From Candidatus Bathyarchaeia archaeon (GTDB taxonomy: Archaea; Thermoproteota; Bathyarchaeia; Bathyarchaeales; Bathycorpusculaceae): DNA of 64,000 nt. Positions within the stretch are counted from its first letter, which is position 1. Every line of letters starts with the position of its first letter. This document shows positions 2,867-22,712 of this stretch, piece after piece. The translations under genes and the position numbers were made by a program. The notes under the pieces were generated by a model. That model did not search any database. It had not been told where the DNA came from and saw only the letters and a program-made list of their open reading frames with translations. The DNA is taken from NCBI GenBank assembly GCA_038883655.1, contig JAVZLQ010000004.1, positions 128,001 to 192,000 on the forward strand, written 5' to 3'.

Positions 2867-3610
2867 TTGCTTCCAATAGGACTGAGAGTTCTCATTTCGT
2901 TATTCATTGGGTTCTTTGTTTTTAGGCCTGATGCTGTAGTTTTGTCTTATGGCGAGCCACCGCAGATTTTGGGAAGTATTGGTTATACCATTTCGACTGA
3001 TTCTGTCAGGTTTTTTGTTGTTGATGGTGTTGTTTATAATACTTTAGGTGCAAATGTTAAGTTGAATGTTACCGCTACCTTTTATGCAGCTCAGAATTTT
3101 TCGTTGGGAACTTCTTATGGCGGAACAAGTTTAAAGATATTGAGGCCTGGGCAGAAGGCGCCTTTTACCATTTATTTTGCGTTGAATTCCACCGATGATG
3201 TGTCACGTTATGACCTTGCTGTTTCTTATGTTGAAACTGACGAACAGCCTTTTGATGTTCTTGAGTTTAGGAATGTGGAAAATCGAAGCGAAGATTCGCG
3301 TTTGGTGATTGTTGGTGAGGTTTGGAACGGAAGGCCCTTTAAAGCTCTTAACGTTGGTGTTGCCTGTATTTGTTATAATGCTAGTGGAGGTTTTTGTGGC
3401 TTATATCGTACTTTTATTCGTTCAATTGACGGCGGAGAGTCTGGGAATTTTACAATTGGAATTGATGATCCGCTGCTTGTTGCTCGGTTTGATTTAGTTG
3501 CTTATTCTGGTGGTTATGAGTATACTTTCATTGCGAATTATGTTTTTTTTGCCTTTTTGGTTTTAGCCTTTGTTGTTTTCCTTGTTTTTATGAAGAGAAG
3601 GGGCTGGTGA
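2867..3610 (+). CDS. Membrane-anchored surface protein with two FxLYD-like Ig domains
   Basis: Two repeats of VxGxVxN...VxATFY/ICYN...LxPGQxAPF; C-terminal TM + KRRGW. Confidence 0.65.
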   Translation: MLPIGLRVLISLFIGFFVFRPDAVVLSYGEPPQILGSIGYTISTDSVRFFVVDGVVYNTLGANVKLNVTATFYAAQNFSLGTSYGGTSLKILRPGQKAPFTIYFALNSTDDVSRYDLAVSYVETDEQPFDVLEFRNVENRSEDSRLVIVGEVWNGRPFKALNVGVACICYNASGGFCGLYRTFIRSIDGGESGNFTIGIDDPLLVARFDLVAYSGGYEYTFIANYVFFAFLVLAFVVFLVFMKRRGW

Positions 3611-3711: not shown

Positions 3712-6360
3712 ATGAAGAAATCAACTTTAACGGCACTTTTGATTGTGGCGTTGATGTTTCCATTGATTGCTGTTCCGATGGTTCATGCGCAAGAACCAAC
3801 AGATCTTAAGCACCTGATTTTGGACACCATTGGTGAACCTCAAGATATTGATCCTGCGTGGGCTTATGATACTGCCAGCGCTGAACTTTTGATGAACATT
3901 TATGAGCCTCTGCTTTGGTTCAATCGTACCGAGATGGCCACTTATATTCCAAGACTTGCGGTAAGCTGGACTTTGGAGGCTATTGACGAGGTTAGTCCTG
4001 AAGGGCTGGAGTGGAAATCTAGGGTTACTTTTAAGTTGCGTGTTCCAGAAAATGGTTATGCTCCTGTTTACTTCCACAGCGATGGTGTGAATGATATTCC
4101 TGGTGAGGGTGCGCAGCTGACAGCTGTGGATGTTGAGTACACCTTTGAGAGACTGCTCATTACGGATGCTGCCACTGGCCCAAGCTGGATGGTTTGGGAG
4201 CCATTAACAGGCGGCTACGCCATGAGCGATTTGAACGAAACTCTAACAGACCTTGGCTGGCCAGTTAACGAGACAACTGGTTGGAACACGATGTGTGATG
4301 AGGCCATAGATCATGCTATTCAACAAAACGGAACGCACATTTGGTTTAACCTTATCATGCCATATGAACCGTTCTTACAAATAGTTGCTCAGAACTGGGG
4401 TGGAATACTAAATAAGGATTGGTGTGTATGGCACGGCGACTGGCCAGGCATGGAGGTCGGCGACGACTGGTACTTGTGGCATGACCCAGAAACTTCGCCA
4501 CTGTACAGTTCTGACCCGTCTGCTCCTGGTCCAAACTTGGACGCTGCTTTGGGTACTGGTCCATACATGCTTGACTATTGGAACAAGGGTTCAGGCAACG
4601 CTTGGTCCATAATTAAGAATCCGAACTACTGGATGGGTTGGGATACTCCATTCCATCCTGAAGGTTGGCCAGCAGGTGTAACAATTAACGGACACGTTGA
4701 GAGGTTCACTTCAAACTACATTCCTGAGTGGACCACGAGGCGGCTGAGGTTCCTTGGTGGTGTTTCAGATTTCTGCGCAGTTCCAAGAATGTACATGGGT
4801 CAAGTTTTGGGTCAGCCTGGAATAGACTGCATATATCCGCTGCCAGTGCTAGCGTGCGACGCGTTCTTCTTCAACTTCCTAGTAAAGGACACGAGCACAC
4901 ACTTGGGTAGAGTTCTGCCGAACGGCACGTTTGCAGAGGATGGATGTCCACCGAACATCTTTGAGGATCAAAACGTTAGGTTGGCATTCGCCCACATGTT
5001 CGATTACACAACCTTCCTATATGCAGCGTTCCTGAACGAGGCAGTTTCTCCGCCTACGCCAATAATTCCAGGATTAGCCTACCACGACCCGTCAATTGGA
5101 CAGACTGAAAACCCAGCGCTTGGAACAAAGAAGAAGTATGGAATTTCATTTGAGCCTCCAGACACTGAAGCATACAACTTGACATTGGCGGTGAAATACC
5201 TACAACAAGCATGGGGCGGCCAACTATGGGCGAACGGCTTCACAATGGATGCTGTTTACAATGAGGGCAACCTAGCAAGGCAAATAGCTGCTACTCTTAT
5301 TAAAGACGCCTTTGACTGGATTAACGCCCACTACGGCACAAAGTTCACTGTCAAAGTGACAAGCATTCCATGGGGCGCTTACAGAACAGAGCAAAGGGCA
5401 AGAGTTATGCCGTACTTCATCGTAGGCTGGCTGGCTGACTACCCAGACGCCCACAACTTTGCACACCCATTCATGCACAGCACTGGTGCATTCTCAAGGT
5501 GGCAAGGTTACAAGGGTGTAACAAGCTTCCCGAATGAGGAGTTTGATACACACATAGAGCAAGGCATTAACACGCTGAACCCAGCGGAGAGACAAGGCAA
5601 CTACACATGGCTACAGCAACACTATGTGGACTTCGCTCCGGGCTTTGTTACAGCGCAGGCTGCTGGAAGACACTTCGAAAGAGACTGGGTTGAGGGATGG
5701 TACTACAACCCAATCTACCCAGGAAACTATGTCTACGACTTGTGGAAGGCAATAGCCGTAACACCAAAGCCTGTTGATGTAGCCGTAACAGCAATAACAA
5801 GTGTTAAGACAATTGAAATAGGCTATCCATATCCGGACAACAAGCCCATACTACCATTCCCATCACCAATAGAAGTTGACGTTGAAAGAATAGACACAAA
5901 CACTGAAGTGCCAGCAATCCAAGTGATTATCGGTTTAGGCTTAAGAAACGTTGAAACTGGCAGAGAAATAATCTTAGACGTTGACCTTGCAACATTAACA
6001 ATCGGCGAAAGCTACACTGCGGAATTCTATGACTTCATACAAGATCCAAACGCGCCAATAGAGCCAGGCACCTACGTGGTGTTTGCCCAAGTCCTAGTCA
6101 TATCAGGATTCGCATATGACTCGGACGCTTCCAATAACAAGTTAAATGATGGCACAGTAGAAGTCGGCTACCTAGTTGGAGATGTCAACGTGGACGGCAG
6201 CGTCGACATGGCTGACATTTCAATCGCGATTGACGCGTTCATGACGTATCCTGGACACCCAGCATTTGACTTCAGATGCGACGTGCTCGAAGACCTCACG
6301 ATCGACATGGGTGACATTTCGTTCCTAATCGACTTATTCATGGTATCGTTTGACCCATAA
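3712..6360 (+). CDS. Peptide ABC substrate-binding protein (family 5) with Ig-like linker and C-terminal dockerin
   Basis: Signal peptide; DPAWAYD...NIYEPL, GTGPY, GWLADYPD SBP5 motifs; C-terminal duplicated Ca loops DVNVDGSVDMAD / DVLEDLTIDMGD. Confidence 0.88.
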   Translation: MKKSTLTALLIVALMFPLIAVPMVHAQEPTDLKHLILDTIGEPQDIDPAWAYDTASAELLMNIYEPLLWFNRTEMATYIPRLAVSWTLEAIDEVSPEGLEWKSRVTFKLRVPENGYAPVYFHSDGVNDIPGEGAQLTAVDVEYTFERLLITDAATGPSWMVWEPLTGGYAMSDLNETLTDLGWPVNETTGWNTMCDEAIDHAIQQNGTHIWFNLIMPYEPFLQIVAQNWGGILNKDWCVWHGDWPGMEVGDDWYLWHDPETSPLYSSDPSAPGPNLDAALGTGPYMLDYWNKGSGNAWSIIKNPNYWMGWDTPFHPEGWPAGVTINGHVERFTSNYIPEWTTRRLRFLGGVSDFCAVPRMYMGQVLGQPGIDCIYPLPVLACDAFFFNFLVKDTSTHLGRVLPNGTFAEDGCPPNIFEDQNVRLAFAHMFDYTTFLYAAFLNEAVSPPTPIIPGLAYHDPSIGQTENPALGTKKKYGISFEPPDTEAYNLTLAVKYLQQAWGGQLWANGFTMDAVYNEGNLARQIAATLIKDAFDWINAHYGTKFTVKVTSIPWGAYRTEQRARVMPYFIVGWLADYPDAHNFAHPFMHSTGAFSRWQGYKGVTSFPNEEFDTHIEQGINTLNPAERQGNYTWLQQHYVDFAPGFVTAQAAGRHFERDWVEGWYYNPIYPGNYVYDLWKAIAVTPKPVDVAVTAITSVKTIEIGYPYPDNKPILPFPSPIEVDVERIDTNTEVPAIQVIIGLGLRNVETGREIILDVDLATLTIGESYTAEFYDFIQDPNAPIEPGTYVVFAQVLVISGFAYDSDASNNKLNDGTVEVGYLVGDVNVDGSVDMADISIAIDAFMTYPGHPAFDFRCDVLEDLTIDMGDISFLIDLFMVSFDP

Positions 6361-6380
6361 ACGCCAACAAACATCCAAAA

Positions 6381-6398
6381 ATTCCCTTTTCTTTTTTA
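6381..6398 (+). terminator. Oligo-T archaeal terminator-like tract
   Basis: ATTCCCTTTTCTTTTTTA shortly after the stop; similar CCC(T)CTTTT tracts follow genes ending at 9775, 14154, 14935 and 19060. Confidence 0.5.
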
Positions 6399-6485
6399 AT
6401 ATTTATGCGTGCAACATCGTTATGAAACTCAAATTCGATTCGACAGATTAATAAATTGGACTTATAAAATTTAATCAGCCAAAAG

Positions 6486-7238
6486 GTGGGAGATTTGAGG
6501 AAACTTGCCTTAACATTAACGTTGATATCGCTTCTCCTCACGCTTCTAAACATAACTGGGCCAATAAGATTTCAAGAAGCTAAGGCGCAAGGAACAACAT
6601 TAGCCGTAAGCAAAATCTACAACGTAAACCAGACAGGAACTTTACTAGTCAACATAACTGTTTCAGAAGTTTCAGGCATGTTTGGATGGATTATAAGTCT
6701 ACAATGGGATCCAAGCGTATTGCAGGTGAACACCGGAGACAAGAACGGGCTTCTTAAAAGCAGAGTTTACTACAACATTTACGAAGGCGACTTCATGAAA
6801 AACGTAAGCGCAACAAGTTTTTCGGTGAATAGGGTAGACAATGCGACGGGCAACATTACGAATCTCTCATGCTTCTTCAAGGTTACGGGCACCACGGTTA
6901 GCGGCAGCGGGCTTCTCGCCACAATAAACTTTACACTGTTGGAGGTCGGCACAACCGCAATAAACGTTACATATTCTTCACTAATTAACAGGGATGGAAA
7001 GGGAATAGACCACATAGTAGTATCAGGTTTAGTCACAGATCAGCCCGAACCTCCTCCACCGCCAATTTGGACGCAGTTCTGGTTCCAGGCAACCCTTGTA
7101 ACAGTGATGGTCGTTGTTGTAATTCCCGCGCTAATTATAAAGAGGTTGAGCGGCAAAACGAGTTTAACAGCTGAGGACATAGAAAAGATAATGGGGTACG
7201 AGGAGAACGTTGAGGGCGAACCTCTAAACGAAGATTAG
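6486..7238 (+). CDS. Membrane-anchored single-cohesin protein
   Basis: Signal, cohesin-like pattern (VNITVSEV..GW..SLQWDPSVL..EGDFM..GSGLLATINF), PEPPPPP linker, TM helix, acidic tail. Confidence 0.75.
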   Translation: MGDLRKLALTLTLISLLLTLLNITGPIRFQEAKAQGTTLAVSKIYNVNQTGTLLVNITVSEVSGMFGWIISLQWDPSVLQVNTGDKNGLLKSRVYYNIYEGDFMKNVSATSFSVNRVDNATGNITNLSCFFKVTGTTVSGSGLLATINFTLLEVGTTAINVTYSSLINRDGKGIDHIVVSGLVTDQPEPPPPPIWTQFWFQATLVTVMVVVVIPALIIKRLSGKTSLTAEDIEKIMGYEENVEGEPLNED

Positions 7239-7311
7239 TGTGGCTATTATTTCTCTGAAATGAGTGTTTTTCAACATATTTATTTCATGTTCGAAACATT
7301 TCTTTTTTCGG

Positions 7312-7326
7312 TAGAAGATTTCTCCA
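7312..7326 (+). promoter_or_regulatory. Operator TAGAA-N5-CTCCA upstream of TATA
   Basis: TAGAAGATTTCTCCA, 5 nt gap, TTTAAATT. Confidence 0.6.
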
Positions 7327-7384
7327 TAACATTTAAATTGGCAGAGTGCGTAGTAATTTTTGCAAAAAGGAGAAGGGAGAAAAT

Positions 7385-9775
7385 ATGAGAAAGATTCTAC
7401 AGAAGGTTAGTGTGATTCCATTAGTTGCATTGATTCTTTTGGGTATGCTGCCAATGTTATCAATAGTTAACGCCGCCACAACAGAAATCTACGTGTCTCC
7501 AGCCAACATCATATACGACACCTCAACAGCCACTCTTGGAACCCGCTTCAACATAACCGTATGGGTTAAAGGCGTAGAAGACATGAAAACTTGGCAGGTG
7601 GAAATGCACTTCAACCACAGCGTAATAAACGTTACACGCTGGTTTGAACCTACATGGAACTCCAGCTACGTGTTCTATGGGAAAACGACGCTTCCAGTTC
7701 CAGCACCACCAAAAGTAAGTTATGGCTCTGTTAGTCCAACTGAAGGCTGGCTTGGTGTCGGTTCAGCGCTCTTCCCAGCTCCAAGCCCTGGAGGAGGCTT
7801 TACTGGTAATGGACTACTGTGCATAATAGAGTTTGAGATAAAGAGTTTGCCAGGAAAGTTTCAAGAGTTCACAAGCATACTTGATCTGAACTATCCAGGT
7901 GGCACGTTCTGGATTAAGGCAGGCGAATCCGCAAAAAGAGCATTTGACGTTTATACCCCTGGGTTCTACAAGATAACGTGGGTTCTCCCGCCGAAGCCAC
8001 GCCTAGCAGTTGACCCAACATACCGCGAGTATGGACCATGGGACTACGTTGTAGGCTGGAAATTCAACGAGCTAGTCTTCATAGACGATTTGGACCCAGC
8101 ATGGGGACTAACAACCGCGACATTCGCCCTAGAATTTGACCCAACGCTTCTCGCAATCTCGAGCTGGTCGGTTGACACACTTTGGGCTACATCCACGGTA
8201 ACTCCAGACACTGGAAGAATAAATGTTTCGGTTGCAGATCCAACGGCAACTCCAAGCGGAGACGTGCCCATAATCGTAATCGAATTCGAAATAATCTATC
8301 AAGGCGAGTCTCCGCCACTACCCCCAATGAGCTACAACGAATCGCCATTAAACCTCGTTGACATAGTGCTCTACAACCACGTTGAGCAAATACCGACAAA
8401 TCCGCCTCTTAACGGCAAAGTCAGAATATACGCGTTGATGGCGTTGCCGCTATCGTGGCTTGAGGTTGTAGACGCAGTGGACGGAGACCACCTAGTAGAA
8501 TTAGGACCAGAACCATCAATAGGCAAAGAATTCGAAGTCCACGTGATAATAAGGAACCTGCACCCAGAATGGAAGATGGTTGCATACCAGTTCAGGCTAT
8601 GCTTTGACGACTCGCTGATTGAAGGAGTAAGCATAACTGAAGGACCCTTCCTCAAAGACCCAAGATGGAACAAGTACGGCACACTATTCATCAGCAGATT
8701 TGACCCGCCAATCTATCCATACAGGGCATGCGCCGTGGTAGGCGACATCCTATGGAACTACACGTACCTAACAACGTTCCCACAGGCCCCAGGACCAGAC
8801 GTACCAAACCTAGTACCACCAGTCAATCCAATACTAGCAACAATCAGATTCCGCGCAAAGGCGCAAGCCTCAATTGACCTAAATGACGTGCTGGATCTTT
8901 GGGACGGAGGCATCCCACCAGTAGACCGCTTCCTAATGGATGTAGACAGGAACTGGATACCACTAACAGATAACATCAACTGCACTTACAAGATGAAAGG
9001 ATTCGGCCAGCCTGGAAGAGTAATCGACGTATTCGGTGGAGTAATAGACACGCAAATAACAGGGTTAGATCCATACCCAGACGGCTTCAACGGAAAAGGC
9101 CCTAACCAACCAATGGACATGGTGTGGCCACAAAAAGAAGTTGTACTATACGCCAAAGTAACATATAACTACTGGCCAGTGCAAAACAAACCAGTCTCAT
9201 TCGAAGTAACAGGACCAAATGGTTTTGAGTGGAAGGGCACAGCCATAACAAACGAAAGCGGCATCGCCAGAATAACATTCAGAATGCCATGGCAATGCTT
9301 CGACGCAGAAAAATACTTCGGAGTATACACAGTTACCGCAACAGCAGATGTATATTGCGTAGTTGTCAATGACACAATGCAGTTCCACTACGACTGGCTC
9401 GTAAGAATATTCAAAGTAACAACAAACAAGTTAGAGTACAACCACTGCGAAACAGTTGAAATAACAGTGACATACGGATCACACCTTATGATGCCAATCG
9501 ATCGGCAGAAATTCCCAGCTGAATTCTGGGTCTACATAAGCGATGAAGTCAACCAACCCATAGGCAAAGACCTAGAAAGACTTTACATCGGAGGAGCAAC
9601 CTTCTGCCAGTACAAGAATGGAACATTGACGTTCAGGATTCACGTACCCAAGTATGCAGTAGCTGGCTGGGCTGACATACATGTCAACTGCTTCAGCGAG
9701 AATCCAACGCTAGGCGGCTGGGCATGGTGTCCAGAAGTCTTGGTAGACAACGCCATATACATAAGGCCATACTAA
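7385..9775 (+). CDS. Secreted scaffoldin-like protein: three cohesin-like domains plus C-terminal Ig-like region
   Basis: ORF 7346..9775; likely ATG 7385 after purine-rich SD; three cohesin-like beta units (~7480-7975, ~8000-8430, ~8450-8995); no TM or dockerin seen. Confidence 0.72.
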   Translation: MRKILQKVSVIPLVALILLGMLPMLSIVNAATTEIYVSPANIIYDTSTATLGTRFNITVWVKGVEDMKTWQVEMHFNHSVINVTRWFEPTWNSSYVFYGKTTLPVPAPPKVSYGSVSPTEGWLGVGSALFPAPSPGGGFTGNGLLCIIEFEIKSLPGKFQEFTSILDLNYPGGTFWIKAGESAKRAFDVYTPGFYKITWVLPPKPRLAVDPTYREYGPWDYVVGWKFNELVFIDDLDPAWGLTTATFALEFDPTLLAISSWSVDTLWATSTVTPDTGRINVSVADPTATPSGDVPIIVIEFEIIYQGESPPLPPMSYNESPLNLVDIVLYNHVEQIPTNPPLNGKVRIYALMALPLSWLEVVDAVDGDHLVELGPEPSIGKEFEVHVIIRNLHPEWKMVAYQFRLCFDDSLIEGVSITEGPFLKDPRWNKYGTLFISRFDPPIYPYRACAVVGDILWNYTYLTTFPQAPGPDVPNLVPPVNPILATIRFRAKAQASIDLNDVLDLWDGGIPPVDRFLMDVDRNWIPLTDNINCTYKMKGFGQPGRVIDVFGGVIDTQITGLDPYPDGFNGKGPNQPMDMVWPQKEVVLYAKVTYNYWPVQNKPVSFEVTGPNGFEWKGTAITNESGIARITFRMPWQCFDAEKYFGVYTVTATADVYCVVVNDTMQFHYDWLVRIFKVTTNKLEYNHCETVEITVTYGSHLMMPIDRQKFPAEFWVYISDEVNQPIGKDLERLYIGGATFCQYKNGTLTFRIHVPKYAVAGWADIHVNCFSENPTLGGWAWCPEVLVDNAIYIRPY

Positions 9776-9852
9776 TAGCTAGCTTTATATTTCATCCCCT
9801 CTTTTTCTTGTTTAGTTGAAACTTAACATAAATCTCTAGGAGAGCCCATAAC

Positions 9853-10887
9853 ATGAAAACAAAAAAACATACATTCACGGTTAAACTCCTATTAATTCTA
9901 ATCTTAATCACAACAGCATCCACATTAAAAATTAACAGAGTCTATACAGAAACAGAAACAACAATACAGCCAAACCCAACAAACACAAACACATCAATAG
10001 GCGAAAACTTCACAATAACAATGACAGTAATAAACGTAACAAACCTAAACGCATGGCAACTCCACCTAACCTTCAACCCACAAATGCTATACTGCACAGA
10101 AGTATACTTACCATCAGAAAACATATTCACACCCTACACTGCCATACTACTCTACCAAATAAACAACACCGAAGGAACAATACGCGCATTCTGCGCACTA
10201 GAAGGAACATTCGGCGTAAACGGAACAGGAACACTAAGCCAAATAAAATTCCAAAGCAAAAACCCAGGAATAACAAGCATAAACCTAATAACAGAAGTCC
10301 AAATTCCATACGGAACATACCTACAAGATCCAAACTACAACCTAATACCATACCAAGTCATAAACCCAACAGTAACAATAAGCGGACCAAACTTCCAACA
10401 AAACACATTCAACATAACACAAAACTCACAAACATACCAAATAACAATACTAAGCAACTCAACAATAACAGCATTCAACTACAACGCGACATTCCAAACA
10501 ATACAATACGACGCAACAGGCACAGACGGAACAACAGGACTATCATCAATAGCCATTCCAAAAACACTCCTAAACGGAATAATAGCAACCCTAATCAACG
10601 AACAAGCCGTACCCTACAACCAATTTGAAAACCAAACACACAACTTCCTCACATTCAACTACACCCACACAACCAAACACATAAAAATCCTCACAACAAT
10701 ACTGGGCGACATAAGCGGAGACCGCACGACAGACATGCTAGACATATCTATAATAATAGACGCGTTCATGACATTCCCAGGAAGCCAAAATTGGAACTCA
10801 CTAGCAGACATAAACAAAGACAACAATGTGGACATGTCAGACATATCGATAGCTGTTGAAAACTTCATGAAAACATGGATTCCCTAA
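9853..10887 (+). CDS. Secreted cohesin + dockerin adaptor protein
   Basis: Cohesin-like NVTNLNAWQLHLTFNPQML..GTGTLSQIKF; C-terminal GDISGDRTTDMLD / DINKDNNVDMSD. Confidence 0.8.
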   Translation: MKTKKHTFTVKLLLILILITTASTLKINRVYTETETTIQPNPTNTNTSIGENFTITMTVINVTNLNAWQLHLTFNPQMLYCTEVYLPSENIFTPYTAILLYQINNTEGTIRAFCALEGTFGVNGTGTLSQIKFQSKNPGITSINLITEVQIPYGTYLQDPNYNLIPYQVINPTVTISGPNFQQNTFNITQNSQTYQITILSNSTITAFNYNATFQTIQYDATGTDGTTGLSSIAIPKTLLNGIIATLINEQAVPYNQFENQTHNFLTFNYTHTTKHIKILTTILGDISGDRTTDMLDISIIIDAFMTFPGSQNWNSLADINKDNNVDMSDISIAVENFMKTWIP

Positions 10888-10959
10888 CAAATAATCACGG
10901 AATAACCTTTATAATTTCCAAATCAACATAACATCCTGGGGAGAAAAGGAGAAAAACAA

Positions 10960-11979
10960 ATGACTAAAAAACAGAAACCAACACTACTTCTTCTAACATT
11001 CACTATAATAATAAGCGTATTATCGCTTTCCTCCTTACAAAACATCAAGTCCGCAAGCAACCTAACACTAACACTGTTTGCACAAGAAGCCTACGACATA
11101 ACCAACCCCATAACAATAAACGGAAGCCTAACACAAGACGGCACACCAGTAACAGACGCACTAGTCTCAATGCAAATAAATAACCCGCGGGGAAACATTC
11201 ACATAATGCGCGTTTTCACAACAGGCTCCACACCACCAGGCCCATGGCCAGTTGAAATAGTAGACTTCTATCTCTGCGACGCAAATGGCAATCCAAAAAC
11301 CAACTTTAAACCAGGAGGAGCGCTGGGCTACACAATCACAGTTAAAAATAATGGAGCTTCGCCCCAATACGTAATAGTGATCCTAACATTCGCATACTCA
11401 AATGGACTGCCATTCTCAGTAATAACGGCCTTCAACGAAACACTCGAGCCAAGCGCAATACGCACAAGCTTCAGATACATATATGACTTCATACCAAGCA
11501 ACGCCCCACTTGGCCCAGCATACGCCTACGCAGTAGCGATAAACAACCTAACACAGTATGGAGGAATGGCATGGTGTCCAGAAAGATCAACAACATTCAA
11601 CATAACCTTAAGCAGCGGAAGCCTAACACTCAATGGATATCAAACAGCACTTTTAGACTCAACTCCTGGAACCTTCAGCATTACCATTAAAATATCGGAC
11701 AATGGCGGACGACTCGGCAACTACACAATATACGCAAATACGTGGTACAACCTCTCATACGCACAAGACACAAAAATCTTCAAAGCATTTCTAAGATCAG
11801 ACGTTAATTTAGATGGAACTGTAGACATGGCTGACATATCAATTCTAATAGAAAAATTTATGTTAACAGATGATGATCCAGATTGGGACCCTATCTACGA
11901 CCTTGTCGAAGATGGCAGCATCGACATGGCTGACATCTCCAAAGCTATAGATGACTATTTTCTGTGGGGCTATTATTAA
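10960..11979 (+). CDS. Secreted Ig-like domain protein with C-terminal dockerin
   Basis: Signal peptide; DVNLDGTVDMAD / DLVEDGSIDMAD; GGMAWCPE motif shared with ORF 7385. Confidence 0.8.
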   Translation: MTKKQKPTLLLLTFTIIISVLSLSSLQNIKSASNLTLTLFAQEAYDITNPITINGSLTQDGTPVTDALVSMQINNPRGNIHIMRVFTTGSTPPGPWPVEIVDFYLCDANGNPKTNFKPGGALGYTITVKNNGASPQYVIVILTFAYSNGLPFSVITAFNETLEPSAIRTSFRYIYDFIPSNAPLGPAYAYAVAINNLTQYGGMAWCPERSTTFNITLSSGSLTLNGYQTALLDSTPGTFSITIKISDNGGRLGNYTIYANTWYNLSYAQDTKIFKAFLRSDVNLDGTVDMADISILIEKFMLTDDDPDWDPIYDLVEDGSIDMADISKAIDDYFLWGYY

Positions 11980-11987
11980 CACGCAAG

Positions 11988-12002
11988 TAGAATTATATTC
12001 CA
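11988..12002 (+). promoter_or_regulatory. Operator TAGAA-N5-TTCCA upstream of TATA-like box
   Basis: TAGAATTATATTCCA, 5 nt gap, CTTAAGAA. Confidence 0.65.
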
Positions 12003-12051
12003 AAAACCTTAAGAACACTTAGAAAATAATAATTATCGAGAGAAAGGAGAA

Positions 12052-14154
12052 ATGCATATGAAAATTAAACAGTACAAGGTTACATTATCGATCTTAATGA
12101 TTCTAGTTTCAACCCTAATGACGATACATTCGGCGTTATCTTCGCCAACATCAGAAGTATACGTGGACCCACCAGATTATATATACGATGCATCCACAAC
12201 CCCGATCGGCACATTATTTAACGTAACAGTAAAAGTCAAATATGTAACAGACATGAAAACATGGCAAGTAAAAATGTGGTTTAACGACAGCTTCATCAAC
12301 GTAACGCGCTGGTACGAACCGAAATGGGACTCAAACTACGTGTTTTACGGCAAAACTACACTACCAGTTCCAGCCCCACCACAAGTAGCTTATGGTCCCG
12401 GAGGATGGTGTGGCGTGGGAGCAAGTCTATTCCCAGCCCCAAGCCCGGGAGAAGGCTTTACTGGAAGTGGGGTCCTATGCATAATAACTTTTAACATAAC
12501 TGCCCTCCCACCACCAAACAAAACATATGCGTGCTTGCTAAACATAACAAACTATCCAGATACATTCTGGATAAGGGCAGGAGAAACAGCAAAACTGCGC
12601 TATGACATTTATAGGAATGGCTACTATGAAATAAGCCCACCATTAATCCCATATGACGTAACAATCAATGCATACTGCAACACCGAGGCACAGCAAATAA
12701 ACGCGGCAATAACGAAAGACGGAATACCAACAGGATATAATACACCACACACGTTCACAGGCTTAACTGGCACACACACATTCACCGTCCCAGAAAAGGA
12801 TTCAAAAGGCCACCCATTCAAACAGTGGAGCACAGGAGAAACAAGCAGAACAATAACGGTGGATTCTGGTGGAACATTCACAGCATATTACGAGGCAATA
12901 GTAATTGAAGGTACAAGAATTTACGTTGACCCGCCAGAAATTATCGATCCAACAATGCTGCCTTGCTCAACCTTTGACATTAACATAACAATCGATGACG
13001 TTTCAAATATGATCTCCTGCGAATTCAACCTTACATATGACCCTAACGTGCTCCAATGGATAGGCATAAAAACCTTCAGAATTTCCGGTCAAACCCCAAC
13101 AACACAGGTCATTATTGATGATGAGGCTGGTTTCATATGGGTTAAACTACGCTATGGCTCATCAATCTTAACAACCTCTCCTATAGCACTGGTTGCAATA
13201 TCATTCCATGTAGAAGGACTAGGATCAACAGTCTTAGACTTGCATGACACTGAACTTCTAGACACAGAAGGCGCACCAATAGAACATCAAGCCATAGACG
13301 GCTTCTTCATGAGCCTCATTCGCGACGTAGCAGTAATAGATGCTGTTCCATCAAGCAACTGGGCATATCCGGGCTGGCCTGTAACCATAAAAGTCACTGT
13401 TAAAAACTTGGGCAATATAAGCGAAACCTTCAGTGTAAGGGCGTTCAGTAATGACACATTAATCGGCACGGCCCCTGTTGTTGATTTAGCGCCAAACACA
13501 CAAACAGACGTATACATACCTTGGGATACATCTGGCTTAGGAGGAATATTCATTATACGGGCTGAAGCTATAGCAGTGCCCTATGAATATGACTTAACTA
13601 ACAACGTGTTAACCGACGGCACCGTTGAAATAGTAACGGTAATGCATGACATTGCAGTTATAGACGTAACTCCAGAACAATTATGGGCTTATCAAGGGTG
13701 GACACTTAAAATAAACGTTACAGTCAAAAACCTTGGAGAAACTAGCGAAGTTTTTAACTTAACCGCGTACTACAACGACAACATAATTGACATTATAACT
13801 GAATTAAATATAGACCCTGGAGAGGAACTTACCATCGAGTACGAATGGAACACTTCCCTCGTTACTCCTTGCAACAACTACACTATCAAAGCTGAAGCAT
13901 CTATAGTGCTGTACGAATACAATGTAACAAACAACCTATACGTAGATGGAGCAGTAAAAGTTAGGATGCCCGGCGACGCAAATGGTGATGGAACGGTAGA
14001 CATGGCTGACATATCTATTCTGATAGAGGCATTTATGACGTATCCAAGTCATCCAAACTGGAAGCCAGAAGCCGACTTAGACCGCAGTGGCTACGTTGAC
14101 ATGGTTGACATATCAATAGCTATAGAAAACTTTAACGAATCCTGTCTCAGATAA
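12052..14154 (+). CDS. Secreted adaptor scaffoldin: cohesin, beta repeat, cohesin, 2x CARDB, dockerin
   Basis: Cohesin 1 near-identical to those of ORFs 7385 and 14210; two (R/H)DVAV..VTVKNLG..ETF..WDT CARDB-like units; DANGDGTVDMAD / DLDRSGYVDMVD. Confidence 0.82.
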   Translation: MHMKIKQYKVTLSILMILVSTLMTIHSALSSPTSEVYVDPPDYIYDASTTPIGTLFNVTVKVKYVTDMKTWQVKMWFNDSFINVTRWYEPKWDSNYVFYGKTTLPVPAPPQVAYGPGGWCGVGASLFPAPSPGEGFTGSGVLCIITFNITALPPPNKTYACLLNITNYPDTFWIRAGETAKLRYDIYRNGYYEISPPLIPYDVTINAYCNTEAQQINAAITKDGIPTGYNTPHTFTGLTGTHTFTVPEKDSKGHPFKQWSTGETSRTITVDSGGTFTAYYEAIVIEGTRIYVDPPEIIDPTMLPCSTFDINITIDDVSNMISCEFNLTYDPNVLQWIGIKTFRISGQTPTTQVIIDDEAGFIWVKLRYGSSILTTSPIALVAISFHVEGLGSTVLDLHDTELLDTEGAPIEHQAIDGFFMSLIRDVAVIDAVPSSNWAYPGWPVTIKVTVKNLGNISETFSVRAFSNDTLIGTAPVVDLAPNTQTDVYIPWDTSGLGGIFIIRAEAIAVPYEYDLTNNVLTDGTVEIVTVMHDIAVIDVTPEQLWAYQGWTLKINVTVKNLGETSEVFNLTAYYNDNIIDIITELNIDPGEELTIEYEWNTSLVTPCNNYTIKAEASIVLYEYNVTNNLYVDGAVKVRMPGDANGDGTVDMADISILIEAFMTYPSHPNWKPEADLDRSGYVDMVDISIAIENFNESCLR

Positions 14155-14209
14155 CTCCCACCTTTATTTTTGAAGCATAAATCTTAAAAATTGAAGTACA
14201 CCATATTCT

Positions 14210-14935
14210 ATGCCTAAGGTGAAAACTTTGAAAGCATTATGTGTTAAAAGGAGAAGTCTATTATCTGCACTACTAATATCGGCAATAATCTTCGCTTCAA
14301 TCTTGTCAATGACAGAGTTTCGAGTATTCGCAGCAACCTCAGCCTACGTTTCTCCGGATTTAATAGTTTTAGACCCGGCAACCAACGGGACAATAGGCAC
14401 CTTATTCAATGTAACAGTGTGGGTTACAGGCGTAGAAGACATGAAAACATGGCAAGTAAAAATGTCATTCAACCATAGCATGATAAATATAACACGCTGG
14501 TACGAGCCCACATGGGACCCAGACTACGTTTTCTACGGCAAAACTACACTTCCAGTCCCAGGTCCAGTAAACGTGCGCTACGAATATGTAAATGAAACTA
14601 GCGGTTGGATTGGCGTCGGTTCAGCAATCTTCCCAGCCCCAAGCCCAGGAAACGGCTTCACAGGCGATGGGCTTCTGTGCATATTACAATTTAATGTTAC
14701 AGCGTCCCCACCTGAAGGCGAACTATACACAACCCAACTTTATATAAACTATCCAACAGACACGTTCTGGATTAAAGCTGGTGAAAGCACAAAAAGAGCA
14801 TTTGACTCTTACACTCCAGGAACAGTCACAATAATACCGGAATTCATTGCACTCATAATGTTGATTGGATTAGTAGTGTCAACCGTTACTGTGACATTAT
14901 CCAGAAAACATGTTCGAAAAGTCAAAACAGCATAG
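14210..14935 (+). CDS. Single-cohesin protein with PEF-CTERM-like sorting signal
   Basis: Cohesin near-identical to N-terminal cohesins of ORFs 7385/12052; ends IIPEF + hydrophobic helix + RKHVRKVK. Confidence 0.8.
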   Translation: MPKVKTLKALCVKRRSLLSALLISAIIFASILSMTEFRVFAATSAYVSPDLIVLDPATNGTIGTLFNVTVWVTGVEDMKTWQVKMSFNHSMINITRWYEPTWDPDYVFYGKTTLPVPGPVNVRYEYVNETSGWIGVGSAIFPAPSPGNGFTGDGLLCILQFNVTASPPEGELYTTQLYINYPTDTFWIKAGESTKRAFDSYTPGTVTIIPEFIALIMLIGLVVSTVTVTLSRKHVRKVKTA

Positions 14936-15005
14936 AATTATAATAATAAACTTTCACACCTCCTTTTTTCTTTAGCATTTAATTGCAGAGCATATATAAT
15001 TTTCA

Positions 15006-15020
15006 TAGAAAAAAGTTCCA
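15006..15020 (+). promoter_or_regulatory. Operator TAGAA-N5-TTCCA upstream of TATA
   Basis: TAGAAAAAAGTTCCA, 5 nt gap, TTTAAAAA. Confidence 0.65.
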
Positions 15021-15109
15021 TAAAATTTAAAAAGTTTTCAAGCAGAAAATATTTTACCCAAAAGTACACTTTTGGGTGTCTAAAAAATTAAAAGAGAGGA
15101 GAGAGGAAA

Positions 15110-18100
15110 ATGGAAGGTAAGCTGTTAGCTGCGCTGATGCTCTCGTTGCTTCTTATAAGCTCCTTAACTGTTTTGCCTATTATGTCGATAAGTGCCAGTG
15201 ATGGAACATTTAATGTGGTCTTAGGAGGAGCGGTTGCTGCTCTTGCCAAGGCTAGAGGAACAAGCGAACAGCATTATTGGGGAAGCGGATGTTGGGCGGC
15301 GGTACTAGGACAAAAGTTTGAGATGTACATTGACCCCACGCTTCCGCCATTTAACGCCTTAGGCACCTTCACAATAGATGACATATCCAGCATCTCCTAT
15401 CACACGAATAAGCCTGGTTCCCAAAATGATGCAGATTTCTATTTGGTGATTTACACCAAACCTGACGGAGTTGATGATAAGGCAACATGGTACGGGTATA
15501 AATTAATTGGCGAACCATATTATTCAAGAAACCTTAACGCTCCTAGCAATCAGTGGAATAAATGGAGCACGGATGTTGGCGCAAACCAGCTCACCTTCTT
15601 TGATCCAGACACCATAGGTTTCTATGGATTTTATGGCCAACCAACCCTCCAAGATATACAAGCCGGACCAATTAATTGGAACAACTATTATTCAGGTTGT
15701 CCAGTAACCAATATCGATTATGGAGTTGAAACTGTAAAGTATATTTCTTTCCAAACTGGAACGGCTTGGATGAACGTTTTTCAAGGCTACATAGACGCCA
15801 TAACAATAGCTCTAAATGATGGAACAACTGTTACCGTTGACCTTGAAGGATTTGCAAGCGAAATATGGGTGGATGACGACTGGACTGGTTTACCACCAGG
15901 CTACGAAGTTGAACCGGGCAAATTTATAGGCTACAACGCCTTCTCAAAAATACAAGATGCTGTTATTGCATCTATTTCTGGCGGTGTAATTTATGTCTAC
16001 GAGGGAACGTATACTGTTTCTTCTACAATAATTATTGACAAAACACTTACCTTGCTAGGGCCACAAGCTGATGTTGATCCACGTCCCATCTACGGCGGGC
16101 GAACTGGTCCAGAAGCTATCATTGAAGGTGATGGAATTATTTCAAATGTTATTAAAATCGCTGCAAATAACGTTGTGATTAATGGTTTCACAATAAGAAC
16201 TGGAAAAGGCGATATAATTCGTCAAGATGGGCCAAACACAGGAACAGTCGTTAAATATAACATAATTCATGACGGACGAGGAGACGAAGGAATACAACTT
16301 GCAAAATGTACAAACGGCATAATAGAATACAACTACGTATATGACATTGCTACTCCAGGTGATGCCATCAGTTTTGCCGACTCAAATTATTGCATCATAC
16401 GGTTTAACGAAGTTTATAACATCGGAAGCGAGAACGCTGCAATCTATGTTTACGGTTCAAACAACATGGCAATTGTTGGCAACATAGTTCACAACGTAAC
16501 ATTAAATGACGGTATCAAATTGGGGTCTAAGAATGGTGCTGATGCAGGAAAGGCTGGAGGGCTAATCAAGGGTAACATTATTTATGATGTGGAGCAGGAT
16601 GGCATAAGCGTTTATACCAGTCATGTTGTTGTCGAAGAAAATGAAATATACAATTGTAGAAGCGAAAATGGCGCCATCTACATCGCATTTGCAGTTTCCA
16701 ACATCACTGTCAGATATAACAACATCCACGATAACAACTTGAAAACATCAAAGAGACAAACATCGGCTGGCATACTAATTGAAAACAGAGTTAATGTTTC
16801 AACTGTCACTCTAAACTACAATAACATATATAATAACAAACCCTATGGCTGCACAAATGAGGCTACTGGACTACTTGACGCCCGCTTTAACTGGTGGGGC
16901 GACGCGAGTGGTCCGACGCATGCGTCTAATTCAGGCGGTATGGGCGATAAAATCAGCGATAACGTTGATTATAGTCCATGGCTCGGTAACCCATTTGAAA
17001 TCATGCCAAGAATATATCACGTTAATCCAACAGGTGCACCCGGCGCAATTCAAGAAGCCATAGACGCGGCAAGTCCTTTTGACACGGTGATTGTGCATGA
17101 GGGAACATATGCGGAGCAAGTAATGATAAACAAGAGCCTAATATTGCACGGCCTTGCTGGGGCCAAAATATTGGCTCCAGACGTGCGAAGCCCAGTCACC
17201 ATTCCAGAGTCAACCGCAATTTTCGATCCAGTGATCTTTGCTTATGGCTCTTTGAGTGGAGCAGGAACAATCGATGTTACCATTGAAGGGTTCGAAGTAG
17301 ACGGCGGAAATAAAGCTTCCAGTAGCTATCGCTATGTTGGAATCTTATGTCGCAACGTTAAACCAGGCGCAATTTCAAACAATGTAATTCACAGCTTGTA
17401 CCCACCCTCTGGAAAAGGAAGCGGACCGCAGACTTTCGGTCTACTTGTTTACGGCGATTCTGATGTAACAATTCAGCACAACGAAATCAAAGATTTTAGC
17501 AGAGGCGGGATAGGCGTTTCCGGCGATGCTGGTCCAAGCGCAGATCCTTACGCCCTTGTCCAACAAAACACGGTCTTTGGAAACGGCTTAGAAACCGAAA
17601 CAAACTGGTGGGCTGAAAATGGTATACAAATAGCATATGGCGCCAAGGCGCATGTTGTAGGCAACGAGGTCTTCGATTGCATGGTAAATAACCCAAGTTG
17701 GGCGTCGACCGGCATACTGGTGGTTGACACAGCCGACACAGTTGTTGAAAACAACTATGTCGAAGGCTGTGACATTGGCATAGGTGCCGTGGACTTTCCA
17801 AGCGCATACGGTCCACCATGGAATTACCACATCCTTTCAGATGTTCTCATAACTGGCAACACCCTGGTCGGCAATACATGGCAAATAGATATCTCAAACG
17901 ACGCAAGAAACGTTAGCGTGACTTACAATGACATCATAAACGCGATTGAGGATGGAATAGATGTTTGGAGTTATTTCGGAGATGTGTTTCCAACAAACAT
18001 AACGATACACTACAACAACATTACAGGTAGCGGTTCATACGGAGTATGGGCAAGCGAAGACATACCAGAACCAGTTGACGCACGATATAACTGGTGGGGA

Positions 18101-19060
18101 CATGAGACAGGTCCTCTCCACGAGACAAGCTGGATTTACATGGGCTCGCCATACGGTCCACATTTCGGCCTAGGCGATAAAGTTAGTGATTACGTGCTTT
18201 ACGTTCCATGGATCTCAGTTGTGCATGATGTTGCAGTAATTGATGTTTCATTTTTACCTACAAGCCTAGTTGCAGGAGAAACTGTTACAATAAATGTGAC
18301 CGTTGAAAACCAAGGAAGCGACTTCGAAAGCTTTACCGTAACAGTTTACTATGATAATACGCCGATAGAAAGTCAAGACGTTATCAATCTGTTTCCGGGC
18401 TTTAACATCACGTTAACTTTCTATTGGAATACCCCACTGGAATTACCCAGAGGAGTCTACATCATAAAGGCGGAAGCATCAATAGTACTTGAAGAAATAG
18501 ATATCCAAGACAACACGTTTACTGATGGAACGGTCGAAATATTATGGCATGATGTAGCTATTGTCGAAATTTCTCCTTCACGAGACTGGGTTTATCAGGG
18601 ACATAACCTTAACATAAACGTTACCGTTCTAAATAAGGGAGATTTCCTCGAAGAAATAACTGTGACACTCTACTATAACATAACTGCAGGACAAACAATA
18701 GGCGCGCAAATAATAACGCTGCCTCCTGGAGAAAGCGCCACACTAACTTTCGTCTGGGACACAACAGATGTAGAATACTGCCACAACTACCAAATAGTCG
18801 TCACAGCAACAATAACCGCACCGGACAATGATCCGTTGGATAACACTTTAACTGATGGAAGTGTAAAAGTTAGAATTCTCGGAGATGTAAACGGCGACGA
18901 AACAGTTGACATGGCAGATATATCGATAATGATCGACGCATTTTTCTCCTATGCAGGGCATCCGCTATGGAACCCAGATCTGGACGTATACATAGACGAT
19001 TCCGTTGATATGGCAGACATAGGCATACTCATCTCAAATTTCCTACTATCGTGCCAATAA
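15110..19060 (+). CDS. Large secreted protein: N-terminal beta domain, two parallel beta-helix (pectin-lyase-like/NosD) modules, 2x CARDB, dockerin
   Basis: IQDAV..GTY and IQEAIDAA..GTY starts, GI-x-x/N-x-I-x-N repeats, two DARxNWWG caps; DVNGDETVDMAD / DVYIDDSVDMAD. Confidence 0.82.
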   Translation: MEGKLLAALMLSLLLISSLTVLPIMSISASDGTFNVVLGGAVAALAKARGTSEQHYWGSGCWAAVLGQKFEMYIDPTLPPFNALGTFTIDDISSISYHTNKPGSQNDADFYLVIYTKPDGVDDKATWYGYKLIGEPYYSRNLNAPSNQWNKWSTDVGANQLTFFDPDTIGFYGFYGQPTLQDIQAGPINWNNYYSGCPVTNIDYGVETVKYISFQTGTAWMNVFQGYIDAITIALNDGTTVTVDLEGFASEIWVDDDWTGLPPGYEVEPGKFIGYNAFSKIQDAVIASISGGVIYVYEGTYTVSSTIIIDKTLTLLGPQADVDPRPIYGGRTGPEAIIEGDGIISNVIKIAANNVVINGFTIRTGKGDIIRQDGPNTGTVVKYNIIHDGRGDEGIQLAKCTNGIIEYNYVYDIATPGDAISFADSNYCIIRFNEVYNIGSENAAIYVYGSNNMAIVGNIVHNVTLNDGIKLGSKNGADAGKAGGLIKGNIIYDVEQDGISVYTSHVVVEENEIYNCRSENGAIYIAFAVSNITVRYNNIHDNNLKTSKRQTSAGILIENRVNVSTVTLNYNNIYNNKPYGCTNEATGLLDARFNWWGDASGPTHASNSGGMGDKISDNVDYSPWLGNPFEIMPRIYHVNPTGAPGAIQEAIDAASPFDTVIVHEGTYAEQVMINKSLILHGLAGAKILAPDVRSPVTIPESTAIFDPVIFAYGSLSGAGTIDVTIEGFEVDGGNKASSSYRYVGILCRNVKPGAISNNVIHSLYPPSGKGSGPQTFGLLVYGDSDVTIQHNEIKDFSRGGIGVSGDAGPSADPYALVQQNTVFGNGLETETNWWAENGIQIAYGAKAHVVGNEVFDCMVNNPSWASTGILVVDTADTVVENNYVEGCDIGIGAVDFPSAYGPPWNYHILSDVLITGNTLVGNTWQIDISNDARNVSVTYNDIINAIEDGIDVWSYFGDVFPTNITIHYNNITGSGSYGVWASEDIPEPVDARYNWWGHETGPLHETSWIYMGSPYGPHFGLGDKVSDYVLYVPWISVVHDVAVIDVSFLPTSLVAGETVTINVTVENQGSDFESFTVTVYYDNTPIESQDVINLFPGFNITLTFYWNTPLELPRGVYIIKAEASIVLEEIDIQDNTFTDGTVEILWHDVAIVEISPSRDWVYQGHNLNINVTVLNKGDFLEEITVTLYYNITAGQTIGAQIITLPPGESATLTFVWDTTDVEYCHNYQIVVTATITAPDNDPLDNTLTDGSVKVRILGDVNGDETVDMADISIMIDAFFSYAGHPLWNPDLDVYIDDSVDMADIGILISNFLLSCQ

Positions 19061-22661: not shown

Positions 22662-22712
22662 GGCTTTCTTCTCTTCTGAATTTTGTTCCATGCATCCCAA
22701 CGTGGAGTGTCG

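Follow-up and report, generated by a model that had tools for sequence, protein, structure and literature searches.

The closest described counterparts of the system analysed here are found in anaerobic methanotrophic archaea (ANME), for which one study, in its relevant passages, reports scaffoldin-like proteins that combine a dockerin with as many as five cohesins, and finds dockerins commonly on binding proteins of the NikA/OppA and TroA kinds (Chadwick et al., 2022; PMC9012536). As noted in the same passages, an earlier survey had contained no archaeal scaffoldins (Peer et al., 2009). ANME cohesin and dockerin domains were also counted by Timmers et al. (2017; PMC5244752), and a passage of a 2026 paper again suggests that transporters are fixed to the exterior of the ANME cell by dockerins (PMC13452462). 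Here we describe a cohesin-dockerin gene cluster at positions 3712-19060 of a 64,000-nucleotide stretch of DNA (the window, G000:C4:128001-192000) from a hot-spring archaeon of the Bathyarchaeia, whose genome (labelled G000) comprises 1.42 Mb in 19 contigs and is 93% complete. The cluster encodes eight predicted cohesin modules and five dockerins, is directly preceded by an Opp-type importer gene set, and probably specifies a non-cellulosomal assembly for surface display, tethering and nutrient capture. A search of one literature collection, combining Bathyarchaeia or Bathyarchaeota with cohesin or dockerin, returned no paper known to describe such a system, and the pertinent passages of PMC12862909 and PMC13452462 describe none.

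The cluster consists of eight consecutive open reading frames (ORFs) on the + strand, separated by intergenic gaps of 55-174 bases, and referred to below by the position of their first letter (Table 1). A Kyte-Doolittle scan placed an N-terminal signal-peptide-like hydrophobic segment above threshold in seven of the eight; the corresponding segment of 12052 is visible in the translation and lies slightly below the threshold used. All eight products thus start with a signal-peptide-like segment and are predicted to be secreted. A sequence-only reading of the window had proposed just such a row of co-oriented secreted proteins, with about eight cohesin-like and five dockerin modules, and both the gene list and the module count have held up against Pfam, profile matches to the PDB and hhalign. 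Its assignment of roles needed some revision. The two membrane anchors (6486 and 14210) and the three-cohesin scaffoldin stand, the latter with its start moved to 7346, since the previously given 7385 is an internal ATG in the same frame. Both cohesin-plus-dockerin adaptors were recovered, and 12052 proved to carry two cohesins. The three dockerin-tagged cargo proteins, among them the binding protein of an ATP-binding cassette (ABC) transporter, are also present; the Ig-like domain suggested for 10960 is better described as a Wzt_C/CARDB-like beta-sandwich (below cut-off), and the 'double beta-helix' of 15110 gave way to two right-handed parallel beta-helix regions of the Beta_helix/NosD-like kind.

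Table 1. Genes and modules of the cluster and its surroundings. Positions are those of the window unless a contig is named; TM, transmembrane.
Feature	Positions	Strand	Content
Two importer permeases, just upstream of the window	G000:C4:126010-128038		BPD_transp_1 with BPD_transp_1_N, OppC_N
Two Opp/Dpp-type ABC ATPases	35-1162, 1159-2211	+	ABC_tran and oligo_HPY in both
Membrane-anchored FxLYD-domain protein	2867-3610	+	between ATPase genes and binding-protein gene
Binding protein	3712-6360	+	SBP_bac_5 (OppA/NikA family), CARDB-like spacer (by eye), C-terminal dockerin 6178-6333
Anchor 1	6486-7238	+	signal peptide, cohesin 6639-7025, PEPPPPP linker, TM helix (residues 200-218), short cytoplasmic tail
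Scaffoldin, 809 residues	7346-9775	+	type A 7478-7990, cohesin B 7991-8440, cohesin C 8441-9025, conserved C-terminal Ig-like domain 9026-9772
Adaptor 1	9853-10887	+	cohesin 9982-10377, middle domain without family, dockerin 10702-10851
Beta-sandwich cargo	10960-11979	+	Wzt_C/CARDB-like, Wzt_C 24.9-26.0 bits (cut-off 30.4), dockerin 11797-11940
Adaptor 2	12052-14154	+	type A 12139-12651, ~90-residue domain, cohesin 12967-13224, two CARDB, dockerin 13969-14130
Anchor 2, ~240 residues	14210-14935	+	signal peptide, type A 14327-14845, tail 14834-14932
Beta-helix cargo, 1316 residues	15110-19060	+	N-terminal domain without family, two right-handed parallel beta-helix (NosD-like) regions, two CARDB, dockerin 18878-19042
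PKD/Flg_new_2 surface protein, 1158 residues	19185-22661	+	C-terminal TM and KRKRK tail; PKD_4 211 bits, Flg_new_2 99.6
Membrane protein, 327 residues	22683-23666	+	follows the PKD/Flg_new_2 gene

Compared with the ANME proteins as described in those passages, the cluster is likewise archaeal and non-cellulolytic, and likewise combines multi-cohesin scaffoldin-like proteins with a dockerin-tagged binding protein of the NikA/OppA type. The role put forward for the ANME modules, to fix functional proteins on the outside of the cell, is also the one proposed here. A dockerin on a NikA/OppA-family substrate-binding protein is found in 3712 (PF00496 123.4 bits, PF00404 23.9 bits), and a dockerin together with multiple cohesins in 12052; the three-cohesin protein 7346 is without a dockerin. 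The differences are that our archaeon belongs to another phylum, that the ANME data count domains and define no operon whereas the whole set stands in one conserved gene array here, that the anchors are a TM helix or an IPEF-TM-basic tail and not S-layer domains, and that three of the cohesins go undetected by Pfam. The novelty claimed in the sequence-only reading, for which isolated Archaeoglobus pairs were the sole archaeal precedent, was therefore overrated in view of the ANME scaffoldin-like proteins in PMC9012536. Since the general idea has already been published for ANME, the gain lies in breadth and in a defined operon, not in a new principle. What is added is a defined core operon that is conserved, a subfamily of cohesins that escapes Pfam, the homogenisation of that subfamily by genome, and fusion proteins that link the cargo types.

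The pairs of Archaeoglobus fulgidus (Bayer, 1999; Haimovitz, 2008, as cited in PMC9012536) resemble the present modules in lying outside cellulose degradation, and are said there to bind specifically; they are isolated modules without scaffoldins, whereas the present system has several levels, with eight sockets and eight plugs. With bacterial cellulosomes, such as that of Clostridium thermocellum CipA and its anchoring scaffoldins, the cluster shares the logic of anchor, adaptor, scaffoldin and cargo, the duplicated Ca2+-loop-helix dockerins and the cohesin superfamily. It differs in having no glycoside hydrolase on the eight dockerin proteins of the genome, no curated carbohydrate-binding module (CBM) on the scaffoldin and no S-layer homology or sortase anchoring, in counting an ABC binding protein among its cargo, and in its archaeal host. 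Small anchored proteins with a single cohesin are familiar from Ruminococcus flavefaciens, whose ScaE is the textbook case. In this respect 14210 resembles ESM Atlas clusters in which a single cohesin is joined to PGF-CTERM, PEP-CTERM, IPTL-CTERM or Gram_pos_anchor, with the difference that its own tail has no curated PEF-CTERM match and that its processing is a prediction.

The eight predicted cohesin modules are distributed over 6486, 9853 and 14210 (one each), 12052 (two) and 7346 (three). A search with the Pfam family PF00963 (curated cut-off 24.1 bits), which had been suggested as a check, bore this out in part: three modules score above the cut-off (6486, 29.5-31.4 bits; 9853, 30.5-30.9 bits; the second module of 12052, 42.4-46.5 bits), two lie below it, and the three modules that we call type A, in 7346, 12052 and 14210, have no Pfam match. 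The 9853 cohesin was overlooked by the whole-protein scan, probably because of its Asn/Thr-rich, strand-biased composition, and was recovered by scanning the isolated piece and in a six-frame scan. A strong strand bias (GC skew -0.30, AT skew +0.35) runs through positions 10001-12000 of the window, over the Asn/Thr-rich genes 9853 and 10960.

Type A is a module of about 170 residues that directly follows the signal peptide, and its three copies share 49-59% identity. A type A profile built from 43 sequences matched 15 PDB entries, all of them cohesins, with 3l8q the best at 4.5e-5, and a scaffoldin profile built from 34 full-length homologues matched 22, again all cohesins. The best PDB matches are the cohesins of the ScaB adaptor of Acetivibrio cellulolyticus (3l8q/4u3s). 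In the scaffoldin profile, module A gave a near-full-length cohesin alignment (3l8q 7e-10, 1tyj 2.6e-6) and module C a best cohesin match of 1.1e-3; with 7346 itself, phmmer returned nothing from the PDB at E<=1. By hhalign the scaffoldin modules are related to each other over 134-141 columns (A to B 93.6%, A to C 98.0%, B to C 99.4% probability), and the C-terminal domain of 250 residues is unrelated to any of them (<=1.4%). In the ESM Atlas, the clusters nearest to 14210 by features (0.96; 19 of 30 hits) are Bathyarchaeota proteins named 'cohesin domain-containing', the Atlas's own model of 14210 (pTM 0.68, pLDDT 0.74) reaches a TM-score of 0.53-0.62 to cohesin models and clusters, and three of the ten rows of an Atlas search with 14210 pass the bar for PF00963. 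Altogether at least six sequence types can be told apart among the cohesins of the cluster, and their divergence is such that BLAST does not connect them. A predicted complex between the type A module of 14210 (residues 40-212) and the 3712 dockerin scored 0.10 and 0.27, below the mark of 0.32, without controls, and speaks neither for nor against binding.

All three PF00963 matches of the genome, and all four proteins matched by the type A hidden Markov model (on 12052 with E 1.1e-94), lie inside the 15-kb stretch. The genome has eight dockerin-bearing ORFs: five in the cluster, a single one some 9 kb before the window, and one each on C1 and C2. There are thus eight dockerin ORFs for eight cohesin modules, with every cohesin in the cluster. 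Having all the cohesins and five of the eight dockerin ORFs within 15 kb indicates that their co-location is not due to chance.

All five dockerins of the cluster are C-terminal. Against the Pfam family PF00404 (curated cut-off 22.9 bits), the protein scan gave 23.9 bits for 3712, 26.5 for 9853, 20.4 for 10960, 31.0 for 12052 and 22.3 for 15110, which leaves 10960 and 15110 slightly below the cut-off. In a six-frame scan of the genome all five came out above it, with 15110 at 23.9 bits and 9853 at up to 30 bits, and 10960 reaching 23.5 bits solely by summing with a neighbouring in-frame match; with this proviso the dockerin assignments of the sequence-only reading were confirmed. An F-hand dockerin is defined by two tandem Ca2+ loops with Asp or Asn at positions 1, 3, 5, 9 and 12, each followed by a helix. 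In alignments, a duplicated 12-residue D-x-[DN]-x-D-G...D loop plus helix is seen in all five; a strict loop pattern recovered both loops in 3712, 9853 and 12052 and the first loop alone in 10960 and 15110. The second loop of the 3712 dockerin has Leu at position 3. The consensus of 29 dockerins from the source genome and its relatives reads GDVNGDGxVDMxDI...ADxxxDGxIDMxDI, and the dockerin tails of 12052 and 15110 match cellulosomal dockerins of the PDB by phmmer. In a dockerin tree, six of seven source-genome dockerins fall in one clade and the 9853 dockerin pairs with that of its orthologue in a related locus (L001); the tree is short and weak, with two of 26 branches well supported, and is for that reason too weak to define specificity classes.

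Among the architectural proteins, the scaffoldin has a well conserved layout, 40 of 61 homologues spanning at least 93% of its length. No CBM was detected in its C-terminal 250 residues, which gave just weak Big_1/MG4 matches. Adaptor 9853 has an orthologue in L001 at 47.5% identity, and adaptor 12052 (CARDB 48.1 bits) has full-length orthologues at 37-45% identity in six related loci. The tail of anchor 14210 reads I-I-P-E-F, followed by a TM helix (residues 212-230) and the basic end RKHVRKVKTA. The combination of I-P-E-[FL], TM helix and K/R tail is present in 23 of the 43 rows of the type A family alignment, in one as L-E-L. 'PEF-CTERM-like', the term of the sequence-only reading, therefore holds for the shape of this tail and does not imply membership in the family. 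The best match to the family model TIGR03024 in the genome, at 18.5 bits, is the protein C1:221675. There is one gene of the exosortase/archaeosortase family (PF09721 above cut-off; TIGR04178 52.9 bits, cut-off 23), nearest to thaumarchaeosortase and ArtC and below both subtype cut-offs. As this family is found in 200 of 301 genomes of the class, it is too common for its co-occurrence to be informative on the 14210 tail.

The binding protein 3712 is the sole PF00496 match in the genome. Its signal region contains no Cys, and the Kyte-Doolittle scan revealed no hydrophobic segment beyond the signal peptide. Without a lipid or TM anchor, the dockerin is its only candidate tether. The genes before it complete an Opp/Dpp-type importer, with two BPD_transp_1 permeases, two oligo_HPY ATPases and one SBP_bac_5 receptor, and this importer gene set directly precedes the cohesin-dockerin cluster. 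The FxLYD-domain protein encoded in between (NF038353 FxLYD_dom 29.1 bits, cut-off 23) has hydrophobic segments at residues 1-19 and 222-240. Between the ATPase and FxLYD genes, on the - strand, lies an ORF of 158 residues (2223-2699) without a Pfam or NCBIfam match, which is a candidate gene only.

The remaining cargo is varied. Protein 15110 matches Beta_helix (103.2 bits in four stretches), CARDB (48.8 bits) and NosD_copper_fam (two stretches); with phmmer against the PDB, just its dockerin and a CARDB-like domain were matched. A double-stranded, cupin-like beta-helix was considered for this protein and rejected, because the families matched are those of right-handed parallel beta-helices. 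By BLAST, 10960 resembles the N-terminal halves of PKD-dockerin proteins from three related loci (L005, L022, L024; 28-31% identity), and on sequence grounds it corresponds to the (PKD-)dockerin protein found at the same position in related clusters. The dockerin ORFs outside the cluster encode a NosD-type beta-helix protein (G000:C2:208114-209490), a PQQ-type propeller (C1) and the upstream protein of 1080 residues. No Pfam domain of a glycoside hydrolase, a polysaccharide lyase (PL) or a carbohydrate esterase (CE) was found on any of the eight dockerin proteins of the genome, in line with the earlier statement that no glycoside hydrolase is recognisable, and no protein of the window has a curated CBM match.

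Some of these outlying proteins merit a brief description. The upstream one (G000:C4:115554-118796; L028:555-3797), a secreted dockerin protein about 9 kb before the window, consists of about four N-terminal repeats of some 130 residues without known family, an internal half-dockerin, CARDB and a terminal dockerin. Its middle part matches Peptidase_C39_2 at 18.8 bits, below the cut-off of 24, and by features its Atlas hits (0.75-0.91) are clusters of C10/C39_2 peptidases with dockerins. We note as a lead that the protein may be a cysteine peptidase tagged with a dockerin. Three adjacent secreted proteins are encoded at G000:C1:220244-225530 (L026): a PQQ-type propeller ending in V-P-E-F, TM helix and basic tail, which is the genome's best, sub-threshold PEF-CTERM match; a PETase-like esterase with Ig-like domains; and a PQQ-propeller-CARDB-dockerin protein. 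The last of these (G000:C1:223797-225530) and the C2 beta-helix protein end in about 70 identical residues, covering the end of CARDB and the dockerin, behind different heads (PQQ propeller and NosD beta-helix). The shared tail suggests that the CARDB-dockerin end was recently exchanged as a cassette or homogenised by gene conversion.

The distribution of the system was examined in 301 sampled genomes of the class. Type A cohesins were found in 30 of them (in 14 of 48 genomes of the archaeon's own family, the source genome left out) and dockerins in 64. Among 1.84 billion representative proteins, type A matched 380 clusters at E<=1e-3 and 166 at 1e-10, and some of the proteins hold up to five copies. 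Three metagenome proteins of 663-1525 residues with four to five type A stretches (P0242, P0256, P0265) represent larger type A scaffoldins elsewhere. In named records, four of the five nearest loci are metagenome-assembled genomes of Bathyarchaeia or Bathyarchaeota, and one is labelled Archaeoglobales.

A synteny survey, also proposed beforehand, was carried out on ten related loci and revealed a core order of scaffoldin, (PKD-)dockerin protein, adaptor and TM-tailed type A anchor. This order is complete in four loci (G190, G300, G082, L005), partly visible at contig ends in three (L001, G072, L004) and differently arranged in the other three (G288, L003, L002). In the relatives the scaffoldin measures about 790-810 residues with 35-38% identity over its full length and the adaptor about 615-740 residues with 37-45%; the anchor has about 225-245 residues in three of the four complete loci and 543-567 in L005. 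L001 in addition keeps orthologues of 9853 and 10960 in the same order. A dockerin-tagged SBP_bac_5 protein adjoins the cohesin genes in four of the ten loci (L005, L004, G288, L003), and G190 offers a weak case (25.4 bits, below cut-off). At the permease position after the tagged binding protein, G288 and L003 have ORFs for putative permeases, with C-termini that resemble those of the permeases of the source genome. L003 also encodes a protein of 1825 residues (L003:5756-11233) in which a subtilase (Peptidase_S8 188 bits), four CARDB, DUF4350, a type A cohesin, further CARDB and a dockerin follow one another, next to the genes of the dockerin-tagged binding protein and of putative ABC permeases. 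A separate observation concerns L004, the 3.4-kb contig labelled Archaeoglobales. The type A module of its scaffoldin is a close sister of that of L005 (Bathyarchaeota; SH-aLRT 99, short branches), and in both loci the gene of the tagged binding protein stands directly before the scaffoldin. The contig may have been mis-binned, or the cluster may have been transferred between lineages.

A tree of 34 type A modules was then compared with the roles of their host proteins. Copies from one genome group together, whatever the role of their host protein, with SH-aLRT support of 99 for the three copies of the source genome, 97 for four copies of L001, 98 for four of L020, 98 for three of L021 and 99 for two of L022. 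Genome labels change 12 times on this tree, where the minimum is 11 and the shuffled mean 25.6, and none of 200 shuffles was as low; because kin share labels, the figure is evidence of clustering and of no more. Exceptions are the scaffoldin copies of G190 and L005, which lie apart from the other copies of their own genome. The host proteins of type A are full-length orthologues between genomes, and the grouping of their modules by genome in spite of this fits homogenisation within each genome. Sockets homogenised in this way suggest that each genome would have one shared specificity or partner for type A.

Homologues of the binding protein supply a different kind of link. P0163 joins the SBP_bac_5 (SBP5) domain to a PQQ propeller, a NosD beta-helix and a dockerin in one chain, P0181 reads beta-helix-SBP5-propeller-NosD, P0179 NosD-SBP5, and P0192 NosD-Mo-oxidoreductase domain-SBP5. 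Such Rosetta-stone fusions support the notion that binding proteins, beta-helix proteins and propellers work side by side. Precomputed annotation places PF00404 on 26 of 120 binding-protein homologues among the matches listed, which is an undercount, because the same annotation overlooks the dockerin of 3712 itself.

A model for the assembly can be built on what was computed: which domains are present, a complete importer, one binding protein without an anchor, the conserved gene order and the type A homogenisation. Its base would be two membrane-held cohesin proteins, 6486 fixed by its TM helix and 14210 by its IPEF, TM and basic tail, the latter possibly processed by the genome's single archaeosortase-family enzyme. 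The scaffoldin with its three cohesins, and the two adaptors with cohesin(s) and dockerin, would multiply the sockets, into which dockerin-tagged secreted proteins would plug in a Ca2+-dependent manner. The key cargo would be the sole OppA/NikA-family binding protein, held by its dockerin beside the Opp-type permease encoded upstream. Two beta-helix proteins, a PQQ-type propeller, the Wzt_C-like beta-sandwich and a possible cysteine peptidase would make up the rest, so that a shared scaffold could bring polymer binding or processing together with uptake of the products. In a cell without an outer membrane, and for a binding protein without another tether, the importer probably depends on the scaffold.

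Several observations weigh against this tethering and nutrient-capture reading. Mutual binding, partner choice, surface location and the role in nutrient capture are all inferred, and it counts against the reading that the pairing is among them. The conserved synteny and the adjacent importer do fit the non-cellulolytic nutrient-capture or envelope assembly proposed earlier. Modules B and C of the scaffoldin stay below the PF00963 cut-off (15.4 and 17.9 bits), the best PDB match of module B is weak (E 0.11), and the evidence for the type A fold is an Atlas model (pTM 0.68) together with sequence profiles. The scaffoldin has neither dockerin nor TM tail, which leaves its own attachment unexplained. 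The 14210 tail gave no match to TIGR03024 (PEF-CTERM, cut-off 23 bits) at E<=1, and our own pattern for motif, TM helix and basic tail found just two proteins in the genome. Near-uniform dockerins facing at least six divergent cohesin types offer no obvious one-plug-one-socket code. The beta-helix, propeller and beta-sandwich cargo has no assignable function, and the 'peptide' label of the importer reflects SBP_bac_5 family membership alone. That family also holds oligosaccharide- and nickel-binding members.

In one alternative, the same architecture would serve a glycan-directed, cellulosome-like complex, the beta-helix proteins acting as lyases or hydrolases, the Wzt_C-like domain targeting carbohydrate and the importer taking up oligosaccharides. 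Opp-family binding proteins of Thermotoga and Pyrococcus do bind oligosaccharides. Right-handed beta-helix domains occur on two of the dockerin proteins, a Wzt_C-type beta-sandwich (below cut-off) on 10960, and a CBM96 on the L001 orthologue of the 19185 protein; beta-helix tailspikes are, according to a passage of PMC13452462, generally polysaccharide lyases or glycosyl hydrolases. The lack of GH, PL and CE domains on the eight dockerin proteins and of curated CBMs in the window, however, makes this alternative unlikely, and the L003 subtilase, which shares a chain with a dockerin and a type A cohesin and is encoded next to the tagged binding protein and ABC genes, points to protein instead. 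The binding protein itself leaves the ligand class unsettled either way, as phmmer found no solved relative of 3712 in the PDB at E<=1e-3. Somewhat less probable again is an adhesive or envelope lattice, in which the links would build a surface layer, or attach cells to each other or to particles through PKD, CARDB and beta-helix domains, with the binding protein a mere passenger. The many Ig-like, PKD and CARDB modules would suit such a lattice, as would the large PKD/Flg_new_2 TM protein that follows the cluster here and in L001; 12052, which has a dockerin as well as a type A cohesin, could conceivably form head-to-tail chains, and an adhesive role has been proposed for ANME dockerins (PMC5244752, in its section 3.5; a passage of PMC13452462). 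A passenger, however, would hardly explain why a dockerin-tagged SBP_bac_5 recurs beside cohesin genes in four of ten loci, or why relatives fuse such domains covalently to beta-helix and propeller domains, and a location right behind the importer genes speaks for uptake as central to the system and not incidental.

It is also conceivable, and in our view improbable, that these cohesin and dockerin homologues do not pair with each other at all, the cohesin-like domains binding other ligands and the dockerin-like ones serving as Ca2+-binding stabilisers. Five of the eight cohesin-like modules fall below or outside the Pfam model, which together with the indirect case for pairing would fit this view, and non-cellulosomal cohesin and dockerin modules without an assigned function are described as widespread (Peer et al., 2009, as cited in passages of PMC9012536 and PMC5244752). 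On the other hand, all the cohesins and five of the eight dockerin ORFs stand in one co-oriented array that is conserved across genera, the type A cohesins are homogenised by genome, and the Archaeoglobus pairs were verified to bind, as stated in the passage on them in PMC9012536. The tethering and nutrient-capture reading can be taken further, to a degree that we regard as possible and still rather doubtful: a species-specific 'nutrisome', in which the four-gene core with its Pfam-missed cohesins would hold the sole oligopeptide-type receptor at the membrane, along with beta-helix, propeller and peptidase proteins that process polymers, under one dockerin code kept by concerted evolution, as a non-covalent equivalent of the SBP-propeller-beta-helix fusions of the relatives. 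If true, this would provide a physical mechanism for the scavenging of detrital polymers that is attributed to Bathyarchaeia.

Bathyarchaeia are abundant and uncultured, and the cluster offers a compact, enumerable test system, with eight sockets, eight plugs and a sole OppA-type receptor with a dockerin in a 1.4-Mb genome. It appears well suited to the questions of how binding proteins are retained in archaea without an outer membrane and whether a cohesin-dockerin scaffold links the processing of polymers with uptake. Archaeal cohesins are undercounted in censuses that use Pfam, since three of the eight present here are invisible to them and two more sub-threshold. Cohesin-dockerin pairs from a hot spring could also serve as thermostable assembly parts.

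Downstream, the PKD/Flg_new_2 gene and the membrane-protein gene behind it (19185-23666) are probably an extension of the cohesin-dockerin cluster. Neither product bears a cohesin or a dockerin, and orthologues of both come after the cluster of L001, with 64-65% identity. No RNA data set is listed as containing positions 6486-14935. Near-identical DNA of the cluster is present in a second study, on contigs of two runs labelled metatranscriptomic and marked 'probably DNA'; these contigs accordingly show the occurrence of the DNA and nothing on expression. Contigs of the runs X3 and X4 join positions 7718-7888, within the type A module of 7346, to 14606-14747, within that of 14210, skipping about 6.9 kb. 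With flanks of just 25-43 letters, this junction may be a real deletion variant without the intervening genes, or an assembly chimera between the paralogous modules.

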